Both the position numbers and the translations under genes were made by a program. A stretch of DNA of 64,000 nucleotides from an uncultured Acidobacteriota bacterium. Lineage in GTDB: Bacteria; Acidobacteriota; UBA6911. The stretch spans positions 128,001-192,000 of the forward strand of contig CAWEJX010000020.1 in assembly GCA_963809485.1 (NCBI GenBank), read 5' to 3'. The notes below the pieces were generated by a model, which saw only the letters and a program-made list of their open reading frames with translations, was not told the origin of the DNA and did not search any database. The stretch's first letter is position 1; each line of letters starts with the position of its first letter. Below are positions 6,250 to 55,020 of this stretch, in pieces.

Positions 6250-6289
6250 AAGGCATCGCACGCGGTCATCCCTGAAAGTGGGCAAAAAA

Positions 6290-8233
6290 TCAGGGCATGA
6301 TGGGCAGTGCTATGAAACTTGCGTGATCTCCTGCTCGATAAATCCGCTGTGTGGCTTTGATGAAATCTGCGGGCTTAGCCCAGAAAATATTCTCCACATA
6401 GGTTTGCGGATTCCGGTCATAAAGCGGAAACCAGCTTGACTGGATCTGCACCATTATTTTGTGTCCCGGAAGAAAGACATGATGGGCCGGCGGGAGTTCC
6501 CAGCGGAAGAGTTCGACCTGTCCTGCGGAAATCGGTGCCGGCTTTGCCTTATCTGTGCGATAGCGGCCGCGCAGTATTTCAGCTGAAACCATCAGCTGAT
6601 ATCCGCCGAGTTCAGGCTTAGATGGATACTCGTCAGGGTAAACGTCGATAAGCTTGAGCACAAAATCCGAATCCGTTCCCGTAGTGGAAGCGAAAAGGTT
6701 GGCAACAGGCCTGCCACCGATGGCAACAGGCCGTGTCAGAGTTTCCGATTGATAGCTCAAAACGTCCGTGCGGCTTGAGAAATTGCGTTGGTCGTCTACC
6801 AGCCACCTTTCCCAGTTCGAGTCCTCGGCATAGGTCGGGCGAATGGGGCGCAGCCTGTAGGGCACCGGTTTTGACGGATCAGAAATATATTCGTCGAATG
6901 CGTCGCCGAGTGCATCCGGAGCATCGAATCCGAGCCCGAACCCTTTTCTTAAAAAATACGCACGCATATTCCCCGCACATCCGGATTCACAGCTGCGAGG
7001 CCAGGAATCGTATCGTTTCCAGTCGTTGCTGCCGGTTTCATACACCAACACGGGCGGCGTATTCGCCTTCACCGCACCGGCTTTCAGGTGCTCGTTGAGG
7101 AAGGGCAAGAGGATGGTCTGGCGAAAATGGCGGGCCGTGTTGCCCTCAAACCTGAGCGGACCGAGCGAACTTCCGTCCCCGTTGGACCCGCTGTGCGCCC
7201 AGGGGCCCATCACAAGGAAATTCATATCATTTTCGCGGTCTTTGGGCTCGACCGCCTGATAGGCGGCGACGGCGCCGTAAATATCCTCCTGGTCCCAGAG
7301 CCCGTGGACATAAAGGATCGGGACCTTCAACGGTTGGTCTGCAAGGATTTTATCCACAGCCCGGGCTTGCCAGAATGCATCATAGGACGGATGCTGCAAC
7401 AGCTTGCGCCACATATCCAGGTGCTCCATTTTCATGCGCCGCCCCAACTCCCCTGCCGAACCCGCCCTCATATAGAGGTCATAATTGTCATAGACGCCGC
7501 TTTTCCAGAGTATGTCCGAATTGCGGGATGCCTCCTGGTCATGGATGTAATCCATCATCATCTGGCGGAAAGCGCCGTTGTGAAACCAATCGTCCCCCAG
7601 CCAGGTGTCAACCATAGGATTGACCGGCACGGCGGCTTTCAAAGCAGGATGCGGATTTACCAGAGCCATGAGAACCAGGAAACCGTCGTAGGACGTGCCG
7701 ATCATGCCGACACGCTGATTGCTCTCCGGCACATTTTTAATCAGCCATTCGATGGTGTCGTAGGCATCCGTGGAGTGGTCGATGCCTGTCGGATTGAGCG
7801 GCCCTCGAAGGGGACGGTTCATGACGTAATCCCCTTCGGACCGGTATTTGCCGCGCACATCCTGGAATACACGAATATATCCGGCACGGGCAATCACATC
7901 GTCGCCGCCCGGCAGGACCGCCTCGAGGTTCTGGCTTTGATCGCGTGTCGAGCGTCTCGATGCACTGTAAGGCGTGCGACTGAGCAGGATAGGCATCTGC
8001 TCCTGCATACGCGGAATCAGGATGATGGTAAACAGCTTCACGCCGTCACGCATCGGGATCATTGCTTCCCGCCTGACAAAATCGGAGTTATCGGCAAGCA
8101 CACGGTCGATTTTGGGGAGTTCGCCCGTTTCATCGGGTTCCAGCGGCACGTGCGTGAGCTGAGCCAGAGCGCCTCCTCCAAAAACTACCAGTGCCAGAAC
8201 TGCCGCCATCCATCCAGCCGTCGATCGTTTCAT
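6290..8233 (-). CDS. CocE/NonD family hydrolase (alpha-amino acid ester hydrolase / glutaryl-7-ACA acylase-like), secreted
   Basis: IPMRDGVKL, QDVRGKYRSEG, nucleophile GTSYDG, GDDWFHNGAFR, SSWFPLYDRNPQ; signal peptide; start moved to MKRS with RBS GGAGGA. Confidence 0.9.
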   Translation of the reverse strand: MKRSTAGWMAAVLALVVFGGGALAQLTHVPLEPDETGELPKIDRVLADNSDFVRREAMIPMRDGVKLFTIILIPRMQEQMPILLSRTPYSASRRSTRDQSQNLEAVLPGGDDVIARAGYIRVFQDVRGKYRSEGDYVMNRPLRGPLNPTGIDHSTDAYDTIEWLIKNVPESNQRVGMIGTSYDGFLVLMALVNPHPALKAAVPVNPMVDTWLGDDWFHNGAFRQMMMDYIHDQEASRNSDILWKSGVYDNYDLYMRAGSAGELGRRMKMEHLDMWRKLLQHPSYDAFWQARAVDKILADQPLKVPILYVHGLWDQEDIYGAVAAYQAVEPKDRENDMNFLVMGPWAHSGSNGDGSSLGPLRFEGNTARHFRQTILLPFLNEHLKAGAVKANTPPVLVYETGSNDWKRYDSWPRSCESGCAGNMRAYFLRKGFGLGFDAPDALGDAFDEYISDPSKPVPYRLRPIRPTYAEDSNWERWLVDDQRNFSSRTDVLSYQSETLTRPVAIGGRPVANLFASTTGTDSDFVLKLIDVYPDEYPSKPELGGYQLMVSAEILRGRYRTDKAKPAPISAGQVELFRWELPPAHHVFLPGHKIMVQIQSSWFPLYDRNPQTYVENIFWAKPADFIKATQRIYRAGDHASFIALPIMP

Positions 8234-17326: not shown

Positions 17327-17674
17327 ATGGAGTGGATTCCCGTTCGCTTTTACGGCCTGGCGCGTGATGTGATTCACGGTTGGCCGCTGGAGGTTAAAAA
17401 GGAATTAGGATCAGTATTGACAAGACTTCAGAAAGGCGAATCCATTGGAATGCCTGATGTTCGGCCAATGCCCGATATCAGCCAGCAAGTTTCAGAGATA
17501 AGAATACCTGATAGGAGTGGAAATTACAGGGCGTTGTATGCGATCCGGACGGAATTTGGCATCTTGCTCTTTCACGCGTTCCAGAAGAAGAGCCGCAAAA
17601 CTTCCGAAAAGGAGAAGAAGACTGCACGAACTCGACTTGAAACATTTTTGAAGGAACTTAAGGAAGAACAATGA
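17327..17674 (+). CDS. Type II toxin, RelE/ParE superfamily (Gp49/HigB-like)
   Basis: VSEIRI, GNYRALY, LFHAFQKKSRKT; toxin-first arrangement. Confidence 0.88.
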   Translation: MEWIPVRFYGLARDVIHGWPLEVKKELGSVLTRLQKGESIGMPDVRPMPDISQQVSEIRIPDRSGNYRALYAIRTEFGILLFHAFQKKSRKTSEKEKKTARTRLETFLKELKEEQ

Positions 17675-17976: not shown

Positions 17977-18302
17977 AGATCCCTCCGGGTCGCCTTATCG
18001 AACGAGAAAAAGGCTTCCCGGACCGCACACCAATAAAACCTGGGCACCCATCATTAGTACCAATAGATGATAGGTAGCTTAGGCTTAATTGGGGTTGGAT
18101 AGGCGGAGGCCAAAAGGAACTTGTCAAGACTCCCAAGGTGTATTCATTTGACAAGGGATTTGTGAGTTTCTTCAGGGGGGCGTATCAGGCTGGATGATTA
18201 TGGCCGACTCTGGGAACGTATGCTGGTCCGCGATCCGGATGGATGGCTCCGTAATTCAGTGTCTGGCCGCCCCAATCCGATTTGATGAAGGAGAAATTGA
18301 GG

Positions 18303-18920
18303 ATGAATCCTAAAAAGGTGGCGCCGGTTTATCAATTTAAAATTATATTGCGGGATACGGAACCCCCCGTTTGGAGGCTCATTCAGGTCCCATCGAGTTA
18401 TAGTTTTTGGGATTTGCATGTCGCTATCCAGGATGCCATGGGTTGGACGGATTCCCATCTACACATGTTTCGTGTCCCGTCCATAAATAAGCGGAAAGAG
18501 GTAAACATCGGGATTCCAGATGAGAACTTCGATGATGTCCAGATCTTGGCCGGATGGGAAATCCCCCTTTCCCGGCATTTCCGAGAACCCGGGGCCAAGG
18601 GAATCTATGAATATGATTTTGGGGATAGCTGGGAGCACGACGTTCTTCTTGAAGGAGTGCTCATTCCAGAGGCTGGGGCGAAATATCCGCGGTGCCTGGC
18701 GGGGGCAAATGCGTGTCCGCCTGAGGATTGCGGAGGGATTGGAGGATACTATGACCTTCTGGAAACCATTCGGGACCCGTCGCACGAAGAGTACGAAGAG
18801 TATCTGATTTGGCTAAAAAGCATGGTTCCTGGGAATGTCCCGTTTGACTCAACGAAATTCGCTCCGGAAGAAGTTCATTTCGATAACCCGAAGAAGAGAC
18901 TCAAATCCCTTCACATCTGA
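18303..18920 (+). CDS. Plasmid pRiA4b ORF-3 family protein
   Basis: PPVWRLIQVP, LHVAIQDAMGWTDSHLH, YEYDFGDSWEH, ACPPEDCGG. Confidence 0.92.
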   Translation: MNPKKVAPVYQFKIILRDTEPPVWRLIQVPSSYSFWDLHVAIQDAMGWTDSHLHMFRVPSINKRKEVNIGIPDENFDDVQILAGWEIPLSRHFREPGAKGIYEYDFGDSWEHDVLLEGVLIPEAGAKYPRCLAGANACPPEDCGGIGGYYDLLETIRDPSHEEYEEYLIWLKSMVPGNVPFDSTKFAPEEVHFDNPKKRLKSLHI

Positions 18921-34755: not shown

Positions 34756-34935
34756 TACAAGCTTTAAAGTTGTTTATTGCGAGTGCCATCGGTTTTATCT
34801 TTCATCGGTTGCGATCAGGCTTCGTTGAGGGACCAGCAACCGTAAAGCCTCCGGATCTGGCGGAGAGCCCGCAGCAATACGCTCGTCTTGCTGTATTTCG
34901 CGATACGGGATTTATTCCTCAAGGGAGGTGCCACT

Positions 34936-37002
34936 GTGACAGGCGGATACACCGGCAAAATCCTTCGAATTAACCTGACCCGAAAATCCATCGGCACCAT
35001 CGATACTGAGAGGTATGAAGAATACGGCGGCGGACACGGAATCGGCTCGGCGATATTCTGGGACCTGGCAGGCGATCAACTTCCCTTTGACGCGCTTGAT
35101 CCCAGGAATGTCGTCACCATCATGACGAGTCCATTTTCCGGCGTGCTTGTACCGGCCGCGACGGGACGGTGTGAAGTGCAGGGCGTCGGGCCGCAGCCCT
35201 ATCCTGTGGAATGGTTCACTCGCAGCAATTTTGGTGGGCGTTTTTCCTCCCAGTTAAAGTATGCGGGTTGGGACGGCATCGTGATCGAGGGCGCGGTGGC
35301 CGGAGCCGACGATCCGGTTTGGATCAACATCATCAACGATAAGGTCACCATCGAGAGCGCACGAACGCTGTGGGGTCTCGATACCGTCGAAACCCAGGAG
35401 GAAATCTGGCGACGCGTGGCTCCGGGCCTGCGGTTCGGCGAGTGGCTCGCTCTTGGAGCCGAATACACAACCCAAAAGCCTGCGGTATTATGCATCGGCC
35501 CTGCCGGAGAGAAGCAGGCCAGAATCGCCTCCCTGATCCACGACGCAGGAAACGGCGCGGGGCAAGGAGGATTTGGAGCCGTTTGGGGATCTAAAAAGCT
35601 TAAGGCGATCAGCGTAATCGGGACGGGAAACGTCACGGTCGCAAATCCGAAGGCCCTGATTGAAGCGCGGCTATGGTATCGGCAGTTCCAATACGACGTG
35701 GATAAACCCAGGTTGGAAAAACCTGCTGAAGCGATGCTTTTCTCACCGGTCAACAATTCCCCGGCTTCGGACAACTTCAATAACATGCAGCCTCCTCTGG
35801 AGCCCGCACGTCCTCAGGCTTGTGCCGGCTGCCCCAAAGCATGCCGGCAAAGATTGGCCGGAGGCATGGGAAATGAGTCGAGTTGTGCAGAGTCTGCCTT
35901 TGGGTTCAGCTTTCCCTCACGGCGGGACAAAGAACGAGCCACCGACCTGTTGCAGGCGTATGGACTTAATGCAGCTCAAATGGGAACCATGATCCAATAC
36001 CTTCTTGCGCTTGAAAAAGCAGGAGTATTGGGCCCGGGGAAGGAAATCGAGTGCGACCTGCCGTTCAATTTGTACGGGACGCTCGATTTTCTCCAGACAA
36101 TAATGAGGAAAACGGCTCTGAGAGAGGGAATCGGCGATATCCTGAGCACCGGCTGCGCCAGGATTGCCGAAAAATGGGGCAGGTACAAAAAAGACACGGA
36201 CAGCGGCATTCTGAATACGCCCAATTGGGGCTATATGGAGCACTACGAACCCAGAGTTGAGGTCGAATGGAGCTATGGCTCGATTCTAGGAGATCGAGAC
36301 ATCAACGAGCACAGCCTCAATTTTCCCCTGCAGCACATGCCCAGTTCAACAATTGGCGCGAAACTCGAACCATTTTTCACTGCCGAAAAGCTGGCTGAGA
36401 TCATTGCCTCAAAGGTCGCTCCTTACACCGGCGATCCCTTCATGTTCGACTACGGCGAAGGTCCCACGGGCATCTATTCGGATCACAGAGTGAAGACGAT
36501 AGCCTGGCACAGGCATTACACAAGGTTCTGGATACAATCGGCGCTTTTTTGCGACTGGGTTTGGCCGTTGTTTTTTACACCCAACACCGCCGATATATCA
36601 GGAGCAACTCCCGAAGGAGAGCCAAAATTCTTCAATGCAGTGACCGGAAAGCGGATTTCGTTCACGGATGGCGTCGAGACGGGACGCAAAATATGGAATC
36701 TGGACCGATCTATTTGGGTTTTGCAGGGCAGGCATCGGGACATGGAAGTCCATGCCGGATACGTTTATAGCGTCCCGACCCAACGACCCTGTTACCTGCC
36801 GGTATGCGATAACGGCAAATGGAGCTATGCCGCCAACACAGGGAGAGTTTTGAACAAGCAAAAATTCGAGGAATGGAAAACGAAGTTTTATGCGTTTGAA
36901 GGCTGGAATACTGCCAGCGGCTGGCCCAAATCGGCGGGGCTCGAGGCACTGGGGCTCGGGAAAGTGGCTGACACCCTGAAATCGAAAAGCAGGCTCGGCT
37001 AG
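34936..37002 (+). CDS. Aldehyde:ferredoxin oxidoreductase family paralog 3
   Basis: GGYTGKILRINLT, LKYAGWDG, GSKKLKAI, CAGCPKAC, FCDW; GTG start with GGAGG RBS. Confidence 0.92.
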   Translation: MTGGYTGKILRINLTRKSIGTIDTERYEEYGGGHGIGSAIFWDLAGDQLPFDALDPRNVVTIMTSPFSGVLVPAATGRCEVQGVGPQPYPVEWFTRSNFGGRFSSQLKYAGWDGIVIEGAVAGADDPVWINIINDKVTIESARTLWGLDTVETQEEIWRRVAPGLRFGEWLALGAEYTTQKPAVLCIGPAGEKQARIASLIHDAGNGAGQGGFGAVWGSKKLKAISVIGTGNVTVANPKALIEARLWYRQFQYDVDKPRLEKPAEAMLFSPVNNSPASDNFNNMQPPLEPARPQACAGCPKACRQRLAGGMGNESSCAESAFGFSFPSRRDKERATDLLQAYGLNAAQMGTMIQYLLALEKAGVLGPGKEIECDLPFNLYGTLDFLQTIMRKTALREGIGDILSTGCARIAEKWGRYKKDTDSGILNTPNWGYMEHYEPRVEVEWSYGSILGDRDINEHSLNFPLQHMPSSTIGAKLEPFFTAEKLAEIIASKVAPYTGDPFMFDYGEGPTGIYSDHRVKTIAWHRHYTRFWIQSALFCDWVWPLFFTPNTADISGATPEGEPKFFNAVTGKRISFTDGVETGRKIWNLDRSIWVLQGRHRDMEVHAGYVYSVPTQRPCYLPVCDNGKWSYAANTGRVLNKQKFEEWKTKFYAFEGWNTASGWPKSAGLEALGLGKVADTLKSKSRLG

Positions 37003-43387: not shown

Positions 43388-44216
43388 TCAAGAGAGCGGA
43401 ATGACCGGAGGATTCACATTCCTATCGGCAGCCGCGATCTGCTGTATCCACCAGGCCGGCAGTTCGCGGATGGAGTTCAACACGGCATCGGGTGTGACAG
43501 CGCCATTCAAATCCGAAGGCCGGAATTTGCCCGTTTTAAGCAGAACGCCCTTCATGCCGGCCTGTTGCGCGCCATCGATATCGGTTTCAATCCCGTCTCC
43601 CACCATGGCAATTTCACTTGCCGGCAAATCCAATCTTTGGGCGGCAGCACGATAAAATGCCTCAGCCGGCTTCCCGAACACCAGGGCTTTCCGTTCGGCG
43701 GCATGCTCGAGCGCAACAACGAATGGAGCAGTGTCCAGCCTGAGCCCGTCCTGTGCGCGCCAGTAGCGCGTCATGCCGAGGGCGATCAGGACGGAATCCG
43801 GATTGGAAAGAAGCAGTCGGAAAGCCCGGTTCAGAGTTCCATAGCTCCAACCGTCGCCCAGATCCCCGATAACGACGTAGTGCGAACCGGATTCCGCGTC
43901 CTGAGGCAAACACTCGATACCCTCGAATTCGCCGAGCGCCCTGGGATTGACGAAAAGCGCGGCCGGGCCATGCGGCCGGGCCCGGAGGTATTCTGCGGCT
44001 GCAACACAGGGCGTGAGGATTTGATCACGGTCGGCTTGCATGCCGAACCTTGCAAGCTTCTTTTCAAGTTCAGCGCGCCCGCGCGAGGTCGTATTGGTAA
44101 CGAATAAATGGGGGATGCCATTGCGGCGGACCCAATCGACTGTAAAGGAAGCCCCTTCAATCGGCGCCTCCGAGTTATACAACACGCCATCCAGGTCGAA
44201 CAATATCCCCGCGCAT
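43388..44216 (-). CDS. HAD-IIA hydrolase (LHPP/HDHD2-like); one extra G after codon 3
   Basis: FDLDGVL, VTNTT, GKPA, MVGD..DIDGA. ATG at 44216 reads M-R-G, and the GGGG run at 44207..44210 shifts it off I-L-F-D-L-D. Confidence 0.88.
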
Positions 44217-44432
44217 GTTCGCTAATCCGCATGTCTTACAGGATTCATTCAGAAGCGGTGAATCCTGGTATTTCAGTTCAGGTTGCAGTTTGACTGCCCG
44301 TCTGCTCCGTCTTGAGATTAAAGGCTCAGAGAAATGCAGACTAAGTTTTATCGCTGATGGCCCCCAATCCAAAACAAAATTACACCGAGTAGCTTGAAAG
44401 AACGTATCGGGATTGTTGTGCGGTTTGCATCC

Positions 44433-44639
44433 AGTCAACGACCGCCGACAAAGCCAGAGGTTTGATGGCAGACCGCTCAAGGCGGTTGGATGAGCTTTAC
44501 TCGCTTGAGCTGTTGACATATGCTGACCTTCACCGTAAGAATCAGCGTTCACCAGCGGTTTTGTCAGCGTCCGTCGGCATGACCTGATCCTGGAGCCGTC
44601 AAACTCTGTGAGTCCCCCAAGCATAGCTGGGGGATTATC
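44433..44639 (-). mobile_element. Divergent IS200-end-like MITE
   Basis: AGTC..CCG.CAAAGCC.GAGG..ACCGCTCAAGGCGGTTGG...TCAGCG repeats...GGAGCCGTCAAACTC.GTGAGTCCCCC..GGGGG: same architecture as 3882..4109. Confidence 0.65.
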
Positions 44640-44731
44640 GATGGATTTGGGCTAATCAGTCCCGGATCAGCAGCGGAGATAGCCTATTTTGCCACTCCGC
44701 AAGTCTATCGCCATCCGATCCGCCGGTGATA

Positions 44732-46765
44732 TCAATCGGACATCAGGAAGATGTATGGTCGGACATCCTCCTCACGGGTGGTCTCCCAGTAGCGAAGCAG
44801 GATCTTATAGACCATCAGTCCCGTCTCGCCTTCGCCGAACACGAGGAATCGCAATGCTTGCTGCATAAGATTCTGGCGCGTAAGGCCGAGAAAGATGCGT
44901 ACAGGATCGGCCAACTCGCTGAGATAGGCAATCGTGTTGGCGATGGCCGTAGCCCCCCACACATTCATGACATAGTCTTCGCCCTCCTTGCGGATCTGCG
45001 CCTCCAGCGTTTCGATGAAGTCGCTGCGGTTGTCTATCAGGTGGACGTGGATGAAACAAAGCGGGCCGTCCATACGGTAGTGGCTGCGAATCTCGCTGGC
45101 CTTCGCCGCCCGTGCTTCCGGCGTATTGGTCTTAATCGGCACCATGTTGATCTTCTTGCCGACCAGTTCCGGGCCAAGGTCATACGACTCCTTGTCGACC
45201 AGGTAGGCTTTATATACCCGCATTTCCGTGGCTCTATTCCAGCGGCTGATCGCGCTCACTACCAGTACCAGGCCTATGAAAACGCTGCCGATGATGATGC
45301 CGTCCGGCCGGCCGATGCAGTTGTCCACTAACGTGTAGGCGAATACCAAAGTGATCACGCCACAGTACAGAGCAGCCAGCCGGTGGCTCTCTTTCCAGAG
45401 AGCCAGTGAGGCGGCGAATGCAGCCGACAGCATCAGCACCAGCACGCCCGTGGCGTATGCACCGCTCTGTGCTTCAACACTTGCGTCGAACACCCAGGTT
45501 ACAATGAGCGAAACAATCAGCAGCACCAATACAAGCGGCCTCGACATTGAAGCCCAAACCGGCGCCATGCCGTAGCGCGGAAGATAGCGCGGCACCAGGT
45601 GGAGCAGCCCGGCCAAGGCTGAAGCCCCCGCCATCCAGAGAATCAGGATGGTAGAGAAGTCATAGATCGTCCCGAATCCGTGCCCAAGATACTTATGAGC
45701 CAAGTAAGCAATAGCGCGGCCGCTGGCCGGTCCGCCAATCCCATAATCGGATTCGGGTATCAGCAGGGTAGTGGCGAAACTCGACATCATCAGAAAGACA
45801 CTCATAATCAGCGCGGCCGTGACGAGCAGCTTGCGCGTATTGCGGATCCGGCCGAGAGGAGCGGGAGCGCCGCGGCGCCTACGGCGCTCATCCCAGCGCC
45901 CGCCGTCCACCAACGGCATCACTGCAACTCCGGTCTCAAAACCGCTAAGACCCAGAGCCAGCTTTGGGAAGATCAGTCCGGCGGCAACCAGCATCATCGT
46001 CCAGTCACCGTGCCGGAAGAGGGCGGCCTGCCAATCGGTAATAGCTTTCGGATAATGGAACACCTCCGACAGAGCCCGGACGAGAACAACAGCGTTGAGG
46101 AGCAGGAACGGAATGCAGATGGCCATTGCGATGCCGATGGCTTCCTTGAATCCGACCAGGAAGACGGCGGCCAGCAAAGCCAGCATGAGCATCGTAATCA
46201 GGAGTTGGGCGTCACCGAGCCAGGGTTTCAGGAAAGGATTTTCGATGGCGTGCTTTGCCGCATCGGCTGCCGACAGAGTCATGGTGACGACAAAATCAGT
46301 AGCGGCAAAACCCAGCAAAATCAGAACCAGGATTTTGCCGAACCAGCCAGGAAGCAGGTGCTCCAGCATTGCGATGGAGCCCTGGCCGGCGAAGGAACGG
46401 CGAGCAACCTGGGCATATATGGGCAGCGCCCCGGCCAGTGTTACCAGAATTAGAACTCCAGTGGCCAGCGGCGCTATAGCGCCGGCTGCAAGAAGAGCGA
46501 TCCCTGGCTGGTACCCCAGCGTGGAAAAATAATCCAGACCCGTCAGCCATATGACCCGCCACCAGGGCTGAGTTGCCGGGCTTTGCGTCCCATGGGATTC
46601 GTCGAGAGGGGCACCCCGTTCCAGCCACCGGCCGAAAGCAGACTTGAAAACATGCTGCTGCACAGGAAGGCTGCGACGGAATGCAATCCAATCCGCAGGA
46701 TTTCCTGGAGGCTGATCCATCGACTCATGCGGGCTTGATCTCGGAGCGGCAGGTGGCATTTCCAT
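44732..46765 (-). CDS. APC-superfamily transporter (amino acid / KimA-like K+ transporter)
   Basis: LTGLDYFSTLGYQPGIA, LSGFETGV, GAYATGV; ~12 TM plus cytoplasmic C-terminal domain. Confidence 0.8.
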   Translation of the reverse strand: MEMPPAAPRSSPHESMDQPPGNPADWIAFRRSLPVQQHVFKSAFGRWLERGAPLDESHGTQSPATQPWWRVIWLTGLDYFSTLGYQPGIALLAAGAIAPLATGVLILVTLAGALPIYAQVARRSFAGQGSIAMLEHLLPGWFGKILVLILLGFAATDFVVTMTLSAADAAKHAIENPFLKPWLGDAQLLITMLMLALLAAVFLVGFKEAIGIAMAICIPFLLLNAVVLVRALSEVFHYPKAITDWQAALFRHGDWTMMLVAAGLIFPKLALGLSGFETGVAVMPLVDGGRWDERRRRRGAPAPLGRIRNTRKLLVTAALIMSVFLMMSSFATTLLIPESDYGIGGPASGRAIAYLAHKYLGHGFGTIYDFSTILILWMAGASALAGLLHLVPRYLPRYGMAPVWASMSRPLVLVLLIVSLIVTWVFDASVEAQSGAYATGVLVLMLSAAFAASLALWKESHRLAALYCGVITLVFAYTLVDNCIGRPDGIIIGSVFIGLVLVVSAISRWNRATEMRVYKAYLVDKESYDLGPELVGKKINMVPIKTNTPEARAAKASEIRSHYRMDGPLCFIHVHLIDNRSDFIETLEAQIRKEGEDYVMNVWGATAIANTIAYLSELADPVRIFLGLTRQNLMQQALRFLVFGEGETGLMVYKILLRYWETTREEDVRPYIFLMSD

Positions 46766-46916
46766 TGTTATCTGCTATTCACGAATCAAAAAATGCTCCT
46801 TCCGGCAAAGAGCTCAAATGGTCTCTGCAGTGCCGGTCGGCGGTTTTGACATCGCAACGGGCAATGAGACGTATCCAGAACGGAGCCGCAGATACTATCT
46901 CAATGCCGTCATCCCA

Positions 46917-47318
46917 TCAGGGACCCTCGACAGCCATTCGCACTACCTCAGCCAGTGAATCAAGTGAGATGGGCTTGGAGAAATAGCTGAACGCCCGCTC
47001 CCGCATGCAGGCAATTACATCCTCGGGCTTTCCAGTATCGGTCAGAATGATCATCCGGGTATGCGGGCGCGCACGCCGGATTTTGAGGGGCAACTCCAAG
47101 TCTTCCCGGCCTGAGGTCTTTTCGCCGGTGACAATCAGGTCGAATGGCCTGCTGCCAGTCAATTCCAATGCTGCCATATTATCGGGCGCGTTTTGTATTC
47201 TCCATCCCGCCGGGATAAGTATGGTGGCAAGAATTTCGTTTATTGCCAGATCCGGATTGATTGCGAAAAGGGTCCTGTGAAAAGAAACCGAACAATCAGC
47301 GGAAGTTTTTTCGGTCAT
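46917..47318 (-). pseudogene. Response-regulator receiver protein, apparently truncated
   Basis: PFDLIVT, IILT, YFSKP receiver motifs; phosphoacceptor Asp position reads G (LIVTGEK); coding-like sequence continues past the TGA. Confidence 0.6.
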
Positions 47319-47373
47319 GGATTCATACCGGAGCTGTCTAGCCCCAAAAGGCTCTGAGAAATACAAGCCAAGT

Positions 47374-48264
47374 TTAATCCCTGACGGGATCACAAACCAG
47401 GATTTCTCCCTTGCCCAGCTCCGATGTGTCCCCCGTATAACGCCGGACCAGGCCATCCCACGCCAGTTCGGGGACCGGCACCTCCAGATCCTGGAACTGC
47501 TTCCACAGGAGCCGCAGGAACACCGGCTTGCAGGTGCAGCTATAAAGAAATGTAGGAAGAAGGCTGGGCTGCTCCATGGCCACGATGGTTCCCCTGGACA
47601 TCCAGGCGCCGGTGCGGATGCCGGCTTTGCCGCCCAGGAAGAGGGTGCCGCCGCGCATCTGGAGTCCGGCGAAATCGCCGACATTGCCCTGGATAGAGAT
47701 CAGCCCTTTTCGCATACGCATGCCGGCTTCGATTCCGGCCGCACCGTCGATCAGGATCGTGCCGCCGCGCATTCCCTTCCGGCTGCCACGATAGGCGGCT
47801 CCGACCTGACCTCCCGCGCTTCCGTGAATCCGGATCAGCCCGCCCGTCATTTCCGCGCCCAGCCAATCTGCAGTATCGCCGTAAACCCTGATGGACCCGC
47901 CCTTCATTTCAGCGCCCAGGTGCATTCCCGAATTACCCCGAATCACGATTTCGCCGGATGTCATACCCTGGCCTATCCTCTTCACCCGCGAGAGGTTGCC
48001 GTGCAATACCAGGCGTCTGCTTTTTTCACCATATATTTCGAAGAAATCGCCCAATCGGCATTTCTGTTTGCCAAGGAGGACAGGAAGCGCGCGGATTTCA
48101 TCCAGCGACAGTTCCGCAACCACATCGGGTGAAAGGACCTCAGCTTCCAGGGGCAGGCCAGGGCGCTCTTTAAGCCGTAATTGAACGAAATCCGCCATCT
48201 CGCCATTCGGCAGGACGTCCCGGAAGCCGGCAGTCGGATCGATGATCAGTGTCTCTGGGCCCAT
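47374..48264 (-). CDS. fwdC: Formylmethanofuran dehydrogenase subunit C
   Basis: PLEAEVLSPD, LGDFFEI, GXGXG beta-helix repeats (GAEMKGG, GMRGGTI), RYTGD..LGKGEILV. Confidence 0.93.
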   Translation of the reverse strand: MGPETLIIDPTAGFRDVLPNGEMADFVQLRLKERPGLPLEAEVLSPDVVAELSLDEIRALPVLLGKQKCRLGDFFEIYGEKSRRLVLHGNLSRVKRIGQGMTSGEIVIRGNSGMHLGAEMKGGSIRVYGDTADWLGAEMTGGLIRIHGSAGGQVGAAYRGSRKGMRGGTILIDGAAGIEAGMRMRKGLISIQGNVGDFAGLQMRGGTLFLGGKAGIRTGAWMSRGTIVAMEQPSLLPTFLYSCTCKPVFLRLLWKQFQDLEVPVPELAWDGLVRRYTGDTSELGKGEILVCDPVRD

Positions 48265-48276
48265 TCGCCTAAAACC

Positions 48277-49605
48277 TCACTGACGGCTGGCCTCAATTCC
48301 GGTCCAGTTGCGTATATCAAAAACCCTTGCTTCAACCGACTCGCGGATGCGCCCGATCACCTGTTCGTCGGTCGGATAGGGTGATTTAAGCGCGGGGCGG
48401 AGATGCAGCGGAATCTCATCCATCCGGTAGATGGTTCCGGGCGCGCTGATTCCGGTCGGCGCGGTTGTGATGTGGATGCGAGCAAGGCGGCTCGTGTGGG
48501 AGACTTTCGGGTCCAGCACAATCGTGGGCACGCGTCCAAGATGATCAATGGCGGGCTGCGGCATCGTTGCCCCGGGATCGGCTCCAAGCACCAGCACCGC
48601 ATCAACGTCGCCGCGGGTCAGCAGATCTACTGCCGTGTATTCGCCGGGATTGTAGCGAGGGTATCCGCGGCTGAAGTCCACTCCGAACGGATAGGAGGTG
48701 ATCCACGTCGTCACGGCATCTGCGCCGGTCACGTTGCCGTGGCCGCGCAGGGGCATGGCCACGAAGTGGGCGAACTGGTTCAGCTCCACTCCCAGCGTCA
48801 GGATTGCCGATGAGTTCATGTGCTTGCCCCGCGTCATCGTCAGTCCCATGCCGAAGAAGATGGCTCCAAAACGGGCGCGCTTCATGCGTTCCACCAGGTC
48901 CTGGAGCTGCTCCAGGGCCAAACCAGTTTCTTCCAGGCTTCGGGAATTGATTGGCCGGCCTTTGACCAGGGCCCTCAATGCCGTGATCACCTCGAAATCC
49001 TTACCGGGGCGGATCTGGAGGAAGATATCGGCCGCGCGGGCCGAGGGGGTGCGCCGTATATCCACCAGGACCATGGTCCTCCCTTTTCGGCCGTTGGGCA
49101 CGAAAAGCCCTTTGGGAGTCAGCGAGTAACGGGTGAAGTGCCGTGGATGACATTCTGCCGGGTTCGCGCCCCAGAAGATAACCAGATCCGCTCTGTTTTT
49201 GATTTCGCCGAGCGTCGCAGCGGGTTTGCCGCCCAACTGGGTGGCTATCTCCGTAGGACCATGTCAAAGTGAAGAGTGGCTGTCGATCACCCCACCCAGC
49301 AATTCCGCCAAGCCTACCGCCGTGCGCTGAGCCTCACAGGTCAGGTTGCTGAGACCATAGATGAGCGGGTAGTCTGCGCGCACAAGCAAATCCGCCGCCG
49401 CTTCAACGGCTGTTTCCAGCGTGGCCGGCCGTCCCTCGATCAGTGCTGCCGGGTAACAGGGCTCGGCATTGTGGTTGGTGAACCAGGATTCTCCCAGTTT
49501 GCAAGCGTTTTTGGCCTTGACGATACGGTCCCCTTCGGTATGCACCTCGATATCGTCGCAGGTGCATCCGCAAAATGTGCAAACTGCAGGAGCGACCACT
49601 GCCAT
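48277..49605 (-). CDS. fwdB: Formylmethanofuran dehydrogenase subunit B, selenocysteine-containing (Sec114; FwuB-type), 442 aa
   Basis: ATG 49605 with AAGGAG RBS; CTFCGCTCDD..ACKLG Fe-S motif; DSHSSL-TGA-HGP in frame with TLGEIKNRADLVIFWG, HPRH, PLRGHGNV, YRMD. Confidence 0.92.
49228..49245 (-). promoter_or_regulatory. Candidate bacterial SECIS hairpin
   Basis: GCC-A-CCC-AGUU-GGG-C-GGC; G-containing apical loop begins 25 nt after the UGA at 49264..49266. Confidence 0.7.
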
Positions 49606-49672
49606 CGCTAAACTCTCCTTCGGTCGATTGGGGGGATCATTCGGCGCCCTCACGGGGCGGCGTTTTGAATGC

Positions 49673-49843
49673 TCATCCCAGCACTCCTCCGCGCCAGCTG
49701 CCGCGTATGCGGCGAGGAAGCCACAGATCGCCGCCTGCGGGCTCCCACGCCCTGATTTCATCCTGCTCAGCGATCGATTCGGGCTTTGTCTGCAGATTCT
49801 CGGGCTGCAGGCGATCCCGGTCCGAAGCTTGCGTTATTCTCAT
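49673..49843 (-). CDS. Small 56-aa ORF between fwdD and fwdB
   Basis: AGGGAG RBS 6 nt before ATG; MRITQASDRD...WRGGVLG*; below the ORF-track cutoff. Confidence 0.4.
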   Translation of the reverse strand: MRITQASDRDRLQPENLQTKPESIAEQDEIRAWEPAGGDLWLPRRIRGSWRGGVLG

Positions 49844-49858
49844 GGAAAACTCCCTGAT

Positions 49859-50206
49859 TCAGGAACCTGCAGAAGGATTTTTTGCCGCTTCGATTTCAAC
49901 TTCCCATCCTTTTTGGGTGGGCATGCCGGTGCCGTCGGTTTGACCTCCCATTAGCATGGATGTCGGCGGTCCGTAAGGAACGAAAACAATCCCAGGAGGC
50001 AGATCGCCTTCAGCGCACTGGAACGTTGCCTCTCCCCACTCACTGCAGACGCGGACATGCATTCCGGGGGAAACGCCCAGGGCTGCGAGATCCTGTACGT
50101 TCATCTGCAACGTGCTCACCATGGTCCGGTACTCTTCACTGTCTTTGCCGATATTGACGTATCTGCCCTGATCGGTTGTCCGTCCCGGAATAAACACACA
50201 GCGCAT
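49859..50206 (-). CDS. fwdD: Formylmethanofuran dehydrogenase subunit D (molybdopterin dinucleotide-binding)
   Basis: PGRTTDQG, MNVQDL, GIVFVPYGP, TDGTGMPTQKG. Confidence 0.88.
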   Translation of the reverse strand: MRCVFIPGRTTDQGRYVNIGKDSEEYRTMVSTLQMNVQDLAALGVSPGMHVRVCSEWGEATFQCAEGDLPPGIVFVPYGPPTSMLMGGQTDGTGMPTQKGWEVEIEAAKNPSAGS

Positions 50207-50840
50207 AAATGCCCTATCTCATCGTAAAGTCAAAAAATCCGGTGTCAGCCGGCGTCGATCTTCAGGCCTTTTTACGCCTGCCGCGAAACAAGTTATACCG
50301 GACCTGCCCGCAATGCGCAAGCGTGCTGCCGCCGGCTGGGCAGGGGCAGCTCTTGGGCTACTCTCGATAAGCGTTCCTGGACGAGCCTGGGCGGAAGATC
50401 GGGGCCCAGGAGATCCTGGCCGCTTTTTCCCGGCTGGACCGCTTGCATTCATGTCTCGCAGAGCAGATCCTGTTGGAGCAAGCAGGCCCAGCCGCGACCG
50501 AGGATAAGCGGATTGATGGCAGGATACAGAAGGCTGCCAAACCCTGGAAAAGCAAGTCGCTCGTGAGTCCTCCGGTAAAACCGGAGCGTTGCCGACAAAC
50601 CAAACACAGAACCAGGAACGACGTGCGCATTTGAAGACAACGGCAATTTGCGGCCCGCCATTTTGCGGCTCGGTGCAAGTCCCATCATTATTTGGATTTG
50701 TTCGAAAATTGAGGATTCTGTTTCGCTTCGCCGATAAGATAGGGGGGTGGCACTGTGTCCGGCGGTATAAAATTCCGGCGAGTCTTGCGTTATTGCGAAA
50801 ACCGACTTAAAGTATCACCCGTTCTCTGACTGACGAAACG

Positions 50841-52610
50841 ATGGCCATTATCCGTTTGGTGCTTCAGACTCCCGTCGCCCAGCCGCCCCCGGTTGAACCG
50901 GCGCAACAGTTACTCGCCTCGGCAAATCTAAGCCGCCCTTACTTTCCGGGCCGGCAGCTCCCTTTTGCGATACTGCTTCAAATCGTTGTTCTTCTCACGG
51001 TTATCCTGACCTCCATATTGGGCTACCCGATTGGGGAACCCCGCATTCCCGAATACCTCACAAAAATTGAGCGCAAGATGCCGAAGGTCGTTATTTATCT
51101 TCCGCTGGTCGGCGGCGGGAATTCGGGCATGTTCTTTCCGTTCGCGAAGCCTCCGGAACCGGAGAAAAGGTCGTCCGCCATACGCACCCCGAGAAGAAAG
51201 GGCCTTTCCTACCCCGGACCGCAGCCGATAGTCTCTGATGTTCCAAATCCGACCAATCCCATACAGACTATTCTTCAGCCGGAACTCGAAAAGCCGCCCT
51301 CCCTTCAACCATTGCTGCCGCTCCCTAATATTGTTCAGATGGCAGACAACCGTGCCGACAAGCATCTCAAATTCCCGGAACCGGCCATAAGGCCGCCGGA
51401 GCCGGTAAAGCCCGTCGAACCGAAGCTGCCGGAGCCGCCCAGTGAACAGCCGGATGTGAAAGCTTACGTGCCGACCCTGCCGCTTTTGAACGTGGACAAG
51501 GTGAAGATCGAGCAGCCAAAGCTGGTACTGCCCGAGTTGCAGCCGCCTCCCCCGGAACCTGAACCTCCACCCAAGCAGGAGGCAAAGGTTGCGGAAAATG
51601 CCCCTGCAGCGATCGAGAGTGCCAAAACCGAAGCGGCCTCCCAAGAAGACGAGGCAAAAGAGCCCCCACCTCCGGCTGCCGCCAAAGCTGCAGAAGAGCA
51701 CAGTCTGCTCGCGCTATCCCCTATGCCGGCGGACCAGCCGGCCAAAGTCCCTTACGGCGAGGCCCGAGGGCGCTTTGCCATTTCTCCGGAACCGAATCTC
51801 GCCACTTCGGAAACGGAACCGGGATCCAGGACCGGATCTACGAACCCGATTGAGGAAAAGGACAGTCAAAAGACAATACTCGGCAGCGAAGGAGCCAAGA
51901 CGGAAACAGCTGCGCAGGGCAATCCCGGTCCTGTCAAGGAATCGAAGCCGGGATCCCAGCCGGGAACGGGATCTGGAACGGGTTCCGGGCCAGGCTCCGG
52001 TGCGGGTTCCGGACCCGGCAAGGGGCCTTTCTCGGGAATCACGATCGTGGGCGGAATGCCTGACCCGGGAACTCCTGTAAAGCCATCGGTCGTAAAGCGG
52101 GCTCGAAGGCCTCTGCAAACATCCTATGGACTGACGATTGTTTCGACGGAAACCAGCGGAGGCGGCCTGCCTTACTTCGATGTTTTCTCACACGACCAGG
52201 TCTATACCGTTTATCTCGATATGCGGCGGACCGAACTCGAAATGACCCCCAAATGGATTCTCGAGTTCGCCGTGCTTTCGGGATCAGCCTATCAGGTGAA
52301 CCCGGCCAAGGTCCCAGGCCGGAGCCAGCAAGGGCTTGTGCTGCCGTTCCCTACCTTTAAAGATCAGCCTGCGCTGCCCGTCGATCTGATACGAAAGTAT
52401 TCGGGCAAAATGGTTATCGTTTACGGCGTCGTCAACACCCAGGGAAAAATGGAGCAGATAGCGGTAAAGCAGAGCCCGGACCCGCTTTTCAACGAGCCGG
52501 TCACAAGCGTGCTAAGCAAATGGACCTTCCGCCCGGCCCGCCTCAACGGCCAGATTGTTCCGGTAAAACTGCTGATGGGAATTCCCCTGTGGTCGCCTGA
52601 AAATCCCTAA
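50841..52610 (+). CDS. Proline-rich membrane-anchored protein with TonB C-terminal-like domain
   Basis: N-terminal TM, long Pro/Glu-rich and Gly/Ser linker, C-terminal WTFRPARLNGQIVPV. Confidence 0.75.
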   Translation: MAIIRLVLQTPVAQPPPVEPAQQLLASANLSRPYFPGRQLPFAILLQIVVLLTVILTSILGYPIGEPRIPEYLTKIERKMPKVVIYLPLVGGGNSGMFFPFAKPPEPEKRSSAIRTPRRKGLSYPGPQPIVSDVPNPTNPIQTILQPELEKPPSLQPLLPLPNIVQMADNRADKHLKFPEPAIRPPEPVKPVEPKLPEPPSEQPDVKAYVPTLPLLNVDKVKIEQPKLVLPELQPPPPEPEPPPKQEAKVAENAPAAIESAKTEAASQEDEAKEPPPPAAAKAAEEHSLLALSPMPADQPAKVPYGEARGRFAISPEPNLATSETEPGSRTGSTNPIEEKDSQKTILGSEGAKTETAAQGNPGPVKESKPGSQPGTGSGTGSGPGSGAGSGPGKGPFSGITIVGGMPDPGTPVKPSVVKRARRPLQTSYGLTIVSTETSGGGLPYFDVFSHDQVYTVYLDMRRTELEMTPKWILEFAVLSGSAYQVNPAKVPGRSQQGLVLPFPTFKDQPALPVDLIRKYSGKMVIVYGVVNTQGKMEQIAVKQSPDPLFNEPVTSVLSKWTFRPARLNGQIVPVKLLMGIPLWSPENP

Positions 52611-52868
52611 TCTCCGCCAGGGCGTCAGCCTGGTTACAAACCGTCCGGAGCCGTGGGCAAGATCATCGATCTTGCCCGCGGGATTTTGCGCGCCGACGCA
52701 GACATTAGCAAATATGCATCCGCGTTCGTCAGGGCCCTTCTCAGCGATCGTCCTCGTTTTCCGACTCTGAGGCTGCCATCTCATGCATTCTCGGATAAAG
52801 CTGCGGATTTGTGCTCGGGATGAAGTATCTGCAGGGGCGGCATGCCGGCTGCGCCGCGGGACTGGCGC

Positions 52869-53786
52869 TTATGGCTTATTTTTCTCCAGAAGATAAAATG
52901 AGCGCATATGGCCATCCTGCTCTGCGATCCAGAAATCGGCGGCCGCATAATTCTTTTTGAAATAGTGCCGGAATACCTGGCGCATCTTCCCCTGCCACTC
53001 GAGAGCAATCCCGAGGTCCCGGGTCCTGATCTCCGGGAGGTTGTACGGAATCTCGAACAGGAACTGGTCCGCGGTACAGCTGAGTTTCACCGGTGACGAG
53101 CTCATGATTCCCGGCGCTGCCTCTACCATGTGATTGATGACCTGGCGCTGCTTCAGCTCTTTGCGGAAATCATGCCGCGGCGGACCCGCTTCCAGCCTGC
53201 TGACGACCGGGCCGGCTTCCAGGTCCCAGTGCGTCAGAATGCGGTCCGTGGGCAGACCGCGGTCCAGGGTGCTCGTGGTTTCGCCGCAGAAGTTTTCTTC
53301 GTAGGCATTTGCCCTGGCGCCCAGCTTCCCCAGTGTGAAATAGGCATTCAGGGGCTGCATCGGGTCAAAAGACGACGTCACCCGAGCTATTTTGCGCTTC
53401 AGAAGCTCCTTCCGCTGGGCCATTTTGAGCTTGAATCCGACATCAAAATTCCTGTAGGCAACACGCACGGCCAGCATGAAAGAATGCTGGATGGGCTTTT
53501 TGTCGGAGGATCCAAGGATGCTCAGGACAAATCCGATCAGCTCCCCGAGGCTGTTGTAGGCACCCAGGACTATGCCGCCGGTGCGGTCTATGGCCAGCAG
53601 CAGGGGAACGGGGACGATGTCGATATCCTGGTAGTGCCACACTTCCCGCTGAATGTCTTCGCAGACTTTGTAGTCCGATAAATTGCGGAATGGACCGATG
53701 GTAATCTTAATTTCATCCTTCCGCTTTTTCCGTCGAACGGCCGGAGTCATCATGGCTTTCCTTTCTTGCATCTGTCGCTTAGTCAT
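52869..53786 (-). CDS. GNAT-family acyltransferase (type often linked to NAAAR/OSBS)
   Basis: GGIVLGAY, HSFMLAV, GFKLKMAQR, FDPMQPLNAYF, GLPTDR. Confidence 0.8.
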   Translation of the reverse strand: MTKRQMQERKAMMTPAVRRKKRKDEIKITIGPFRNLSDYKVCEDIQREVWHYQDIDIVPVPLLLAIDRTGGIVLGAYNSLGELIGFVLSILGSSDKKPIQHSFMLAVRVAYRNFDVGFKLKMAQRKELLKRKIARVTSSFDPMQPLNAYFTLGKLGARANAYEENFCGETTSTLDRGLPTDRILTHWDLEAGPVVSRLEAGPPRHDFRKELKQRQVINHMVEAAPGIMSSSPVKLSCTADQFLFEIPYNLPEIRTRDLGIALEWQGKMRQVFRHYFKKNYAAADFWIAEQDGHMRSFYLLEKNKP

Positions 53787-55020
53787 AAATCAGCGCTTTC
53801 CGGCGCTTCTCCAAAAACTTTCCCGTATTCGGTCGGTCGTGCCGGAGCACTTCGGCCGCCGATTGCCCCGCCTTCAGCATCGTCAGCGCCTGTGCGTTGC
53901 CCAGCAGGCCGTCGATACTGTCTATCTCGAATTGGTCCGCGTACATCCTGCGCAAAACCGCGATTAGCGTGAGACCCAGCTCCACAGAGTCCAGCTTTTC
54001 GATGTCGCTGATCAGCAGGCTCACGCCGCCGCATTTCAATCCCCGGTGTTTGCTGGAACCTGGGGTAAAATTTAGCGGTATAAACCGGACTCCGTCAATC
54101 TTTTCCGCTTGAAGCTCCGCCGCGAACCTTTGCGGATCGATCCATGGCGCTCCCACGATTTCGAAAGGCCGGTCCGTGCCGCGCCCCACTGATAGATTCG
54201 AGCCCTCGAGCAGACAAACGCCGGGATAAAGGACCGCCGCCGTCATGCTGCGCATGTTCGGGGAAGGATCAATCCAGAGCTGGCCCGTATCCCAAAAGCA
54301 GTAGGAGCGGCGCCAGCCTTTCATGGCGATGACCTGCAGCCTGGCGCCGATTTTGTTTTCCGTGTTGAAATAGCGCGCAAGCTCTCCGATGGTCATTCCG
54401 TGGCGCACGGGCAGAGGCATGTATCCGACAAAGGATGCCTTATCGGCGTCCAGCATCGGCCCTTCGACCCGTTGTCCGCCGAGCGGATTCGGGCGATCCA
54501 GAACATAAAACGGAATGCCGGCTTTTGCCGCTTCTTCCATGCAGTAGGCCATCGTGGTGGTATAGGTGTAAAAGCGCGCGCCGATATCCTGGATATCGAA
54601 AACCAAAGCATCGATATCACGAAGCATCCCGGCCGTCGGCCGTCTGGTGTCGCCGTACAGGCTGTAAACGGGAAGTCCGGTGACCTCGTCCACCGAGGCG
54701 CCGACTTTGCCGTCCATATTCCCGCGGATCCCGTGCTCGGGGCTGAAGAGAGCTGCAAGCCTGCATTTTTTTGAGCGGGACAGGAGATCGACGGTCGTTG
54801 TGCCGTCGGCGGATACTCCGGTATGGTTTGTAACAAGGCCGATACGCTTGCCGGCAAGAGGCTCGAAATCCTGAGCCCGCAGAACATCGATCCCATTGAG
54901 GACCGGAGGAGCCGCGTCCACACCCGACAATGGCGCAGCATTCTGAAACGCCAGGACCGCTGCCAGAAGGATCCAGCCGGCCCTGCAATTATTATGCGAT
55001 TGAACCGGAAATCTATTCAT
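53779..55020 (-). CDS. namZ: Exo-beta-N-acetylmuramidase NamZ (DUF1343)
   Basis: GLVTNHTG, FSPEHG, YSLYG, FDIQDIGARFYTY, DRPNP, RHGMTIGEL, SVGRGT; signal peptide. Confidence 0.9.
   Translation of the reverse strand: MNRFPVQSHNNCRAGWILLAAVLAFQNAAPLSGVDAAPPVLNGIDVLRAQDFEPLAGKRIGLVTNHTGVSADGTTTVDLLSRSKKCRLAALFSPEHGIRGNMDGKVGASVDEVTGLPVYSLYGDTRRPTAGMLRDIDALVFDIQDIGARFYTYTTTMAYCMEEAAKAGIPFYVLDRPNPLGGQRVEGPMLDADKASFVGYMPLPVRHGMTIGELARYFNTENKIGARLQVIAMKGWRRSYCFWDTGQLWIDPSPNMRSMTAAVLYPGVCLLEGSNLSVGRGTDRPFEIVGAPWIDPQRFAAELQAEKIDGVRFIPLNFTPGSSKHRGLKCGGVSLLISDIEKLDSVELGLTLIAVLRRMYADQFEIDSIDGLLGNAQALTMLKAGQSAAEVLRHDRPNTGKFLEKRRKALIYD

Follow-up and report, generated by a model that had tools for sequence, protein, structure and literature searches.

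The fwdDBC locus

We analysed a 64-kb stretch of DNA from an uncultured Acidobacteriota bacterium (contig CAWEJX010000020.1 of assembly GCA_963809485.1, positions 128,001 to 192,000), hereafter the window, which carries a cluster of genes for subunits of formylmethanofuran dehydrogenase (Fwd), all on its minus strand. Read in the direction of transcription, the cluster consists of fwdD (49859..50206; 115 aa), which encodes the molybdopterin-dinucleotide-binding 'domain IV' subunit; a small conserved open reading frame (ORF) for a putative selenoprotein or leader peptide (49637..49843); fwdB (48277..49605; 442 aa), with a predicted selenocysteine (Sec) at codon 114; and fwdC (47374..48264; 296 aa), which encodes the GXGXG beta-helix scaffold subunit and starts 12 nt after the fwdB stop. 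Two hairpins resembling the selenocysteine insertion sequence (SECIS) belong to the cluster. One, with comparative pairing support, lies 3' of the TGA of the small ORF (49638..49671, minus strand), and the other lies within fwdB (49228..49245, minus strand).

Pfam and NCBIfam family searches of the window revealed no amidohydrolase in or beside the D-B-C cluster, which is therefore not a complete A-B-C-D operon, as it contains no fwdA. The gene coordinates, the B/C spacing and this absence agree exactly with a preliminary description of the locus. FwdC scores 274.1 bits against TIGR03122 (cut-off 130.65). FwdD matches Pfam Molydop_binding (E 1.2e-10) and NF042908 at 74.1 bits, under that model's strict 175-bit cut-off, and fwdD is the genome's only FwdD-like gene besides domain IV of a 684-aa oxidoreductase.

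For comparison, 555 relatives were recognized among 600 matched public-genome stretches, and the best 80 of the 555 were used; counts over 81 loci are the window plus these 80. By record label, the Sec-type fwd loci sampled belong to Acidobacteriota, Planctomycetota, Rokubacteria, Chloroflexi-labelled bins and others. The source genome comprises 6.04 Mb in 21 contigs and is estimated to be 95.7% complete with 7.3% contamination.

FwdB as a predicted selenocysteine redox subunit

FwdB scores 508.8 bits against TIGR03129 (cut-off 327.8), with residues 7-424 aligned to profile positions 2-421 of 421. Its single in-frame TGA is codon 114 (49266-49264), placing U114-H115 within the motif HSSLUHGPTE, in keeping with a metal site at which a Cys or Sec ligand is followed by His (Cys118-His119 in M. 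wolfeii). TGA occupies this codon in all 80 related loci; paralogues in L036 and L037 have Thr in place of Sec. The catalytic Arg, Arg288 in M. wolfeii, would be R287 here (PLRGHGNV, invariant in 18 sequences), equated solely by way of a Cys-type relative whose PMRGH Arg aligns to chain position 288 of 8rja_B. The N-terminal residues C9, C12, C14, C16 and C35 are invariant and would include the four ligands of the [4Fe-4S] Cys motif, and the pterin cap is provided by the separate domain IV protein, FwdD, encoded upstream. FdhA-type models are not matched (TIGR01591, 65.3 bits, cut-off 666; TIGR01553, 32.8 bits, cut-off 814).

In the archaeal enzyme the formate/CO2 redox site is FwdBD, and the non-redox FhcB of Methylorubrum extorquens has Ser for Cys118 and is described as lacking His119, Arg288, the [4Fe-4S] domain and FwdD (PMC6926001, in part). 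Since the window FwdB keeps the features that are missing from FhcB, for the Arg by the equivalence given above, it is not an FhcB.

The fwdB hairpin has a 7-bp stem, with one A-C mismatch in the window, and the loop AGUU. Its 18 nt (GCCRCCC-AGUU-GGGYGGC) are almost invariant in the 81 sequences, synonymous sites included (columns 22-38). The genome encodes tRNA-Sec (C19:20948-21046), SelB (391 bits) and SelA (565 bits). A bacterial selenoprotein gene is marked by three things, an in-frame UGA, a hairpin 3' of it whose apical loop contains GU, and a genome that encodes the Sec machinery; both fwdB and the small ORF appear to have all three. We therefore predict that Sec is inserted at codon 114 and that FwdB is a redox-competent selenoprotein. 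As a separate observation, three Rokubacteria-labelled loci (L031, L046 and L084) carry more TGA-containing molybdopterin oxidoreductase genes beside the Sec-type fwd operon, both up- and downstream of it, with the motifs EQQARV*HGPTVV and DSCNRT*HAPSVA.

FwdA and the C1 pathway on another contig

The genome's sole FwdA over the cut-off (758 bits) is encoded on another contig than the window cluster, at C7:63986-65566. The fwd complement of the genome is thus one FwdA, one FwdB (the Sec-containing protein of the window), two FwdC and one FwdD. On C7 the gene order is beta-RFAP synthase (MptG), an mtd-like gene (Mpt_N domain), ATP-grasp, fhcA, ftr/fhcD, fhcC, mch and an mptN-like gene, followed by CitG-like, fae, HisA/F-like and mfnD/F/E-like genes; B and D are missing. 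The ftr/fhcD, mch and fae products score 427, 403 and 256 bits, respectively, and the mfn and mptN matches are under the curated cut-offs. The presence of fae and an mtd-like gene points, from general pathway knowledge, to the oxidative direction, from formaldehyde to CO2.

The preliminary description had offered two alternatives, of which the first, that fwdA and the genes for tetrahydromethanopterin (H4MPT) and methanofuran (MFR) lie elsewhere in the genome, is borne out by this single C7 cluster. Bacterial H4MPT pathways have long been known. A Sec-containing fmdB in a bacterial fmdD-fmdB-fmdA-fmdC operon has also been published already (Kim et al., 2016; PMC4807772, in part), and the earlier remark that either alternative would be notable was thus overstated.

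Operon arrangements and selection among relatives

Of the 80 related loci, 54 have the order B..A..C, nearly always preceded by D. Five further loci show B..A and end before C, three have adjacent B-C without A (L022, L023 and L024, with FwdB identities of 94, 83 and 80%), ten have D-B without A or C within at least 3 kb, and in eight the locus is too short for the arrangement to be determined. Where there is enough downstream sequence (72 loci), A follows B in 59, B-C occurs without A in three and D-B stands alone in ten. D-x-B-A-C is therefore the usual operon; the loci without A make up a small clade, and the operon is quite often found split. In L029, L041 and L084 the open frame of fwdA runs for 829-857 aa, seemingly into fwdC, which reflects either an A-C fusion or an ORF-extension artefact.

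The A-less arrangement is present in seven genomes, six besides the source. Ratios of non-synonymous to synonymous substitution rates (dN/dS), computed across four genomes of this clade with dS saturated for distant pairs, are 0.056-0.080 for fwdB, 0.035-0.17 for fwdD, 0.076-0.21 for fwdC and 0.07-0.285 for the small ORF. The D-B-C module genes are under purifying selection in the A-less clade. A quick FwdC tree (in which row L089 is a trimming artefact) places six C genes of A-less modules on one side, with a Shimodaira-Hasegawa-like approximate likelihood ratio test (SH-aLRT) support of 91, and eight resident C genes on another (99); the window fwdC falls among the former and is separate from the resident fhcC.

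Cys-type and Sec-type modules within the genus

Among 30 surveyed genomes of the window's genus, 23 have FwdA, single-copy in all of them. In 18 of these 23, A is preceded at 7-25 nt, on the same strand, by a FwdB gene with no internal stop; this FwdB gene is in two pieces in two genomes and a partial match in one. Either a frameshift or an assembly error accounts for the two-piece genes (G021 C17:412836-414094, with a 5-nt gap; G032 C2:440403-441657, with a 25-nt gap). The metal-site residue was checked in four of the 18 non-Sec FwdB proteins (G015, G018, G004 and G025), and all four carry Cys, in the motif DCCTSV-C-HGPSG. The gene order in G015, G018 and G025 is beta-RFAP synthase, mtd, ATP-grasp, FwdD, FwdB (Cys), A, Ftr, C, Mch and MptN. 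In G004, tblastn recovers ATP-grasp, FwdB (Cys), A, Ftr, C, Mch and MptN and no FwdD match, and the contig stops before the mtd and beta-RFAP genes.

The other five genomes, among them the source genome (G000, G016, G028, G008 and G009, the last presumably the same genome as G001), have only a TGA-containing FwdB, which adjoins FwdC on another contig than A, and none of the 23 genomes has both the Sec- and the Cys-type FwdB. ATP-grasp directly abuts A in G000, G009, G008 and G016, where the resident D-B is gone; the G028 contig ends just upstream of A. In G008, G016 and G028 Ftr directly abuts Mch, the resident C being gone as well, and in G016 and G028 the module FwdC is the genome's only FwdC. 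An additional locus in G008, which also has two Sec-type D-B-C clusters, consists of a fwdD fragment (first 37 residues) followed by a module-type fwdC without fwdB (L143, contig C67, 3972-5017) and seems to be a remnant third copy.

Comparison of operon structure within the genus therefore separates two mutually exclusive arrangements, the Cys-type D-B-A and the A-less Sec-type D-B-C. The preliminary description had allowed that the window cluster might be only a Sec isoform module if a second complete fwd operon were present. Searches of the genome for FwdA, FwdB, FwdC and FwdD found no such operon; sister species, in turn, carry a complete Cys-type operon at the A-ftr-C site, which suggests that the window cluster is a Sec isoform module replacing the Cys isoform. 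Such a distribution is to be expected if the Sec D-B-C module took over from the resident D and B, and finally from C, within a single enzyme that retained FwdA and Ftr; a free-standing formate dehydrogenase or a relic would hardly explain it. The comparative support for replacement of the module is unusually clear.

A proposed shared-subunit enzyme and its alternatives

We consider it probable that a Sec isoform module has replaced the resident module and most likely uses the C7 FwdA in trans. The cluster would supply the redox and scaffold part of the enzyme, namely FwdD, the small Sec-ORF product, a Sec-containing FwdB with a W- or Mo-pterin, and FwdC. It would descend from a Sec-type fwdD-x-fwdB-fwdA-fwdC operon that subsequently lost fwdA, and would have displaced the Cys-type fwdD-fwdB pair from the resident H4MPT/methanofuran cluster, along with the resident fwdC in some sister species. 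The C7 locus would then provide its single FwdA (formyl-MFR amidohydrolase) and its Ftr in trans, so that the genome still makes one complete enzyme. In the proposed route, formaldehyde would be converted to methylene-H4MPT by Fae, to methenyl-H4MPT by Mtd and to formyl-H4MPT by Mch; Ftr would yield formyl-MFR, from which formate would be formed at FwdA and then oxidized to CO2 at the Sec/pterin site of FwdBD, with electrons leaving through the FwdB [4Fe-4S] cluster to an acceptor. Gene content, the Sec codon with its SECIS, the Sec machinery, sequence conservation and the mutually exclusive distribution in the genus are observed, whereas assembly with FwdA, the direction of flux, the metal and the electron acceptor are what we infer.

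Several observations weigh against this reading. No electron acceptor gene is encoded near the cluster. In a quick FwdA tree, with SH-aLRT as the branch support, the 52 A proteins of Sec-type operons form one clade (SH-aLRT 100), and the source genome's FwdA falls among the A proteins of Cys-type clusters, being about 53% identical to the Sec-type A proteins. Because this FwdA is of the Cys-type lineage, the proposed complex would be a hybrid, drawn from two paralogous sets. In two larger bins with the label Chloroflexi/Caldilineaceae (G002 and G003), the A-less Sec module occurs together with two Cys-type D-B-A sets and may there be a spare isoform. Assembly gaps (21 contigs, 95.7% completeness) could also hide a further fwd gene.

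The genus comparison disfavours the second alternative of the preliminary description, in which a new partner would accompany a stand-alone Sec formate dehydrogenase or CO2 reductase. In this scenario D-B-C alone would oxidize free formate released by an Fhc-like A-Ftr-C hydrolase, with FwdA unbound. The archaeal formate/CO2 redox site does reside in FwdBD (PMC6926001, in part), the genome's FwdA is of another paralogue lineage than that of the Sec-type operons, and D-B occurs without A or C nearby in 10 of 72 related loci. However, FwdC has no known role in formate dehydrogenases and is yet kept 12 nt after fwdB at a dN/dS of 0.076-0.21; the module FwdC is the sole FwdC of G016 and G028 while A-Ftr stays, which points to shared use; exactly D-B is lost from the resident cluster wherever the module occurs in the genus, which looks like substitution within one complex; and FwdB reaches only 65 bits against an FdhA model with a cut-off of 666. 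We thus regard the stand-alone enzyme as unlikely.

Decay of a D-B-A-C operon after deletion of fwdA, leaving a functionless remnant, would account for the clean absence of fwdA, and a remnant consisting of a D fragment and C does exist in G008 (L143). It is nevertheless very improbable for the window cluster, in which all frames are intact, the Sec codon and SECIS are retained and FwdB is the genome's only one; moreover, the arrangement occurs in seven genomes, with dN/dS of 0.04-0.21 over four of them at dS up to saturation. That the missing fwdA is an assembly or binning artefact, or that the two clusters come from different co-binned organisms, is scarcely credible even for a metagenome-type assembly with 7.3% estimated contamination, as the B-C junction is continuous over 12 nt inside contig C20 (matches out to position 1,149,047) and recurs in six other genomes, and deletion of the resident D-B accompanies the module in 5/5 genus genomes and is found in 0/18 with a resident-type fwdB by A.

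A small UGA-ending ORF between fwdD and fwdB

The 253-nt spacer between fwdD and fwdB is not empty. It holds an ORF that begins at ATG 49843, with GGGAG 7 nt upstream, and continues for 56 codons to a TGA (49675-49673), which is followed by 11 more codons and a stop TGA (49639-49637); if read through, the product would have 68 residues. Homologues are found in 79 of the 81 loci, that is, in the window and 78 of the 80 relatives. The two loci without it are L090, where fwdD is also absent, and L094, which has only about 520 nt of upstream sequence. The N-terminal part of the ORF varies in length and sequence, and the last 26 residues are conserved with the consensus AWExIExGRYMPRRIRGSxxGRELG. 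Its W, P, R, G, S, G, L and G residues do not vary among 75 sequences, yet they are encoded by many synonymous codons, including CGN/AGR and CTN/TTR. The codon-position entropies are 0.52, 0.59 and 1.36. Conserved residues in varied codons and the codon-position entropy together suggest that the small ORF is coding.

The first stop of the ORF is TGA in 79/79 loci carrying it. The next in-frame stop, at a median of 14 codons further on, is variable (TGA in 49, TAA in 17 and TAG in 12 of 78 loci). Codon +2 after the TGA is always Phe (TTC 57, TTT 18), and codons +3 and +4 are mostly aliphatic with varied codon usage, which suggests translation past the TGA. The hairpin in this region has the form CGCCC-NGUNN-GGGCG, with its upper stem at 49659-49655/49649-49645 and the loop CGUGA in the window. 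In its 5-bp stem, 97.6% of cells are paired, with 22 compensatory cells in two pairs, and 0/500 shuffles scored as high; RNAalifold recovered the hairpin independently. Read by eye off the alignment, the loop G and U are at +23/+24 from the U of UGA, a spacing which we take to be that of the E. coli fdhF SECIS.

Single-sequence folding energies differ insignificantly from those of shuffled sequences, both for this hairpin (z -1.27) and for that of fwdB (z -0.18). Since none of the single-sequence folds outperforms the shuffled sequences (z -1.27, -0.18 and +0.37), the support for both hairpins is purely comparative. A covariance model of the small-ORF element found its own site (window E 1.2e-6, genome E 1.1e-4), no other site better than E 0.39 in the genome or 0.056 in the window, and not the fwdB SECIS. 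The two hairpins may form one RNA class, judged by eye from nothing other than the sequence likeness CCNCCC-NGUN-GGGNGG.

Pfam and NCBIfam searches at E<=1 assigned no family to the small ORF apart from a chance Acb3 match (E 0.022). None of its six database homologues (49-56 aa) has a name more informative than 'hypothetical protein', and the Atlas scores of the ORF are 0.79 or below. Two other explanations for the spacer were rejected. A riboswitch or other known RNA was sought with Rfam (E<=1) over 44000-54000, which gave only a chance hsp17 match elsewhere. An in-frame upstream extension of fwdB to ATG 49761 is unconserved, and the conserved frame there is that of the small ORF, which is a different one.

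The small ORF is absent from the Cys-type clusters examined in G002, G003 and G015. The Cys-type D-B spacing is 35-76 nt in G002 C230, G003 C188 and G015; a different conserved small ORF of about 65 aa lies between D and B in the Cys-type clusters of G002 C9 and G003 C246. This Cys-type ORF (L121, about 4700-4915; L122, about 6165-6365) begins MSW..DWA.AMS.KL.QQR and is unrelated to the Sec-type ORF. The D-B spacer may generally hold small genes.

The read-through stop lies at most 3 nt from the inferred fwdB start in 21/78 loci, and in several of these it overlaps the fwdB ATG as ATGA (by eye). In three loci, however, the small ORF has remained beside fwdD, at a distance of more than 1.3 kb from fwdB. 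Judging from the sequences, the ORF is probably either a new small selenoprotein or a selenium-sensing leader. The former, with its product as a fifth, Sec-bearing subunit across the sampled bacterial Sec-type Fwd loci, is in our estimate the likelier of the two, and we propose it tentatively, at a little under even chances. A leader, in which decoding of the UGA by SelB and Sec-tRNA gates translation of the Sec-containing fwdB, is doubtful; if it operated, no truncated FwdB would be made under selenium shortage. The conserved 26 residues are about the length of the ribosomal exit tunnel. Depending on which applies, the ORF would represent a family of selenoproteins not recognized so far, or a form of translational control by selenium that is new.

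Genomic surroundings

A stand-alone response-regulator receiver gene lies 3' of fwdC on the same strand (46917..47318, minus strand; Response_reg E 1.5e-10). Described earlier as a decayed regulator, it is in fact apparently intact, with a likely start at 47318, about 133 aa and a position 56 nt 3' of the fwdC stop. Its membership of the unit is uncertain, and no counterpart was found next to the cluster of the closest relative. On the other side, the flank described as TonB-like is a divergently oriented gene for a 589-aa protein (50841..52610, plus strand) with a TonB_C domain (E 6e-6); it is a neighbour outside the enzyme and is kept at the same place in G001 with 89% identity. The intergenic region between fwdD and this gene (50207-50840) is 634 nt long here vs 334 nt in the closest relative (L022/L125), and the extra sequence contains short ORFs only, without a family match; the two small ORFs of this interval likewise lack a family match.

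Elsewhere in the window, plus-strand genes at 854-1621, 1639-3693, 4174-6246 and 34888-36999 encode three proteins of the aldehyde:ferredoxin oxidoreductase (AOR) family, with AFOR_N matches of E 3e-49 to 1.5e-54, and one 4Fe-4S dicluster protein. AOR enzymes are typically tungsten enzymes, and the AOR genes hint at the use of tungsten and ferredoxin by the organism. A Gp49/HigB-like toxin-family gene and a pRiA4b ORF-3-like gene (17327-17671 and 18282-18917, plus strand) lie in a stretch of lower G+C content (about 0.50), and the pair could be a small mobile or toxin-antitoxin islet.

Comparison with known systems

If the proposed enzyme is correct, the redox half (D, B and C) is exchangeable as a module within one genus, Cys for Sec, with FwdA and Ftr staying in place, and the subunit sharing known from Methanothermobacter extends to bacteria. 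For soil and wetland bacteria, it would argue that formyl-methanofuran is oxidized fully to CO2, without the release of formate that characterizes the Fhc complex. A partial search of the literature found neither an A-less fwdDBC cluster in bacteria nor the small ORF described, and it is this small UGA-containing ORF that might turn out to be new biology.

The window cluster resembles the fmdD-fmdB(Sec)-fmdA-fmdC operons of Rhodopirellula sp. P2, a Lake Washington fosmid and Methylomirabilis oxyfera, which likewise have Sec at U-H-G-P, D first and C last (PMC4807772, in part). It differs from this Rhodopirellula-type operon in the deletion of fwdA between B and C and in the small TGA-ending ORF between D and B, of which the available part of that publication makes no mention. 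The C7 set of fhcA-ftr-fhcC and mch resembles FhcABCD of Methylorubrum extorquens, and the two have in common the context of bacterial H4MPT-linked formaldehyde oxidation (PMC6926001, in part). However, FhcB lacks the redox features, which the window FwdB appears to have in full, and the window enzyme should thus oxidize to CO2 instead of releasing formate.

Alternative Sec and Cys isoforms of FwdB are also found in Methanopyrus kandleri, in which, according to work by Vorholt and colleagues in 1997, Sec and Cys formylmethanofuran dehydrogenase isoenzymes reportedly coexist and are regulated by selenium. Unlike in that organism, the two forms are mutually exclusive between species of the window's genus. 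The closest functional parallel for the missing fwdA is Methanothermobacter, where the molybdenum isoenzyme encoded by fmdECB takes its FwdA from fwdHFGDACB, a sharing that was shown biochemically (Kaster et al., 2011; PMC3087415, in part). As in the window, that isoenzyme operon has the B and C/D functions and no A. The fmdECB case is archaeal, Cys/Mo-dependent and accompanied by the second isoenzyme, whereas the window case is bacterial and Sec-dependent, has lost the other B/D and would share its FwdA. The most likely mechanism is thus one already known, in which an isoenzyme module borrows FwdA, here in a bacterial and selenium-dependent setting that is new.

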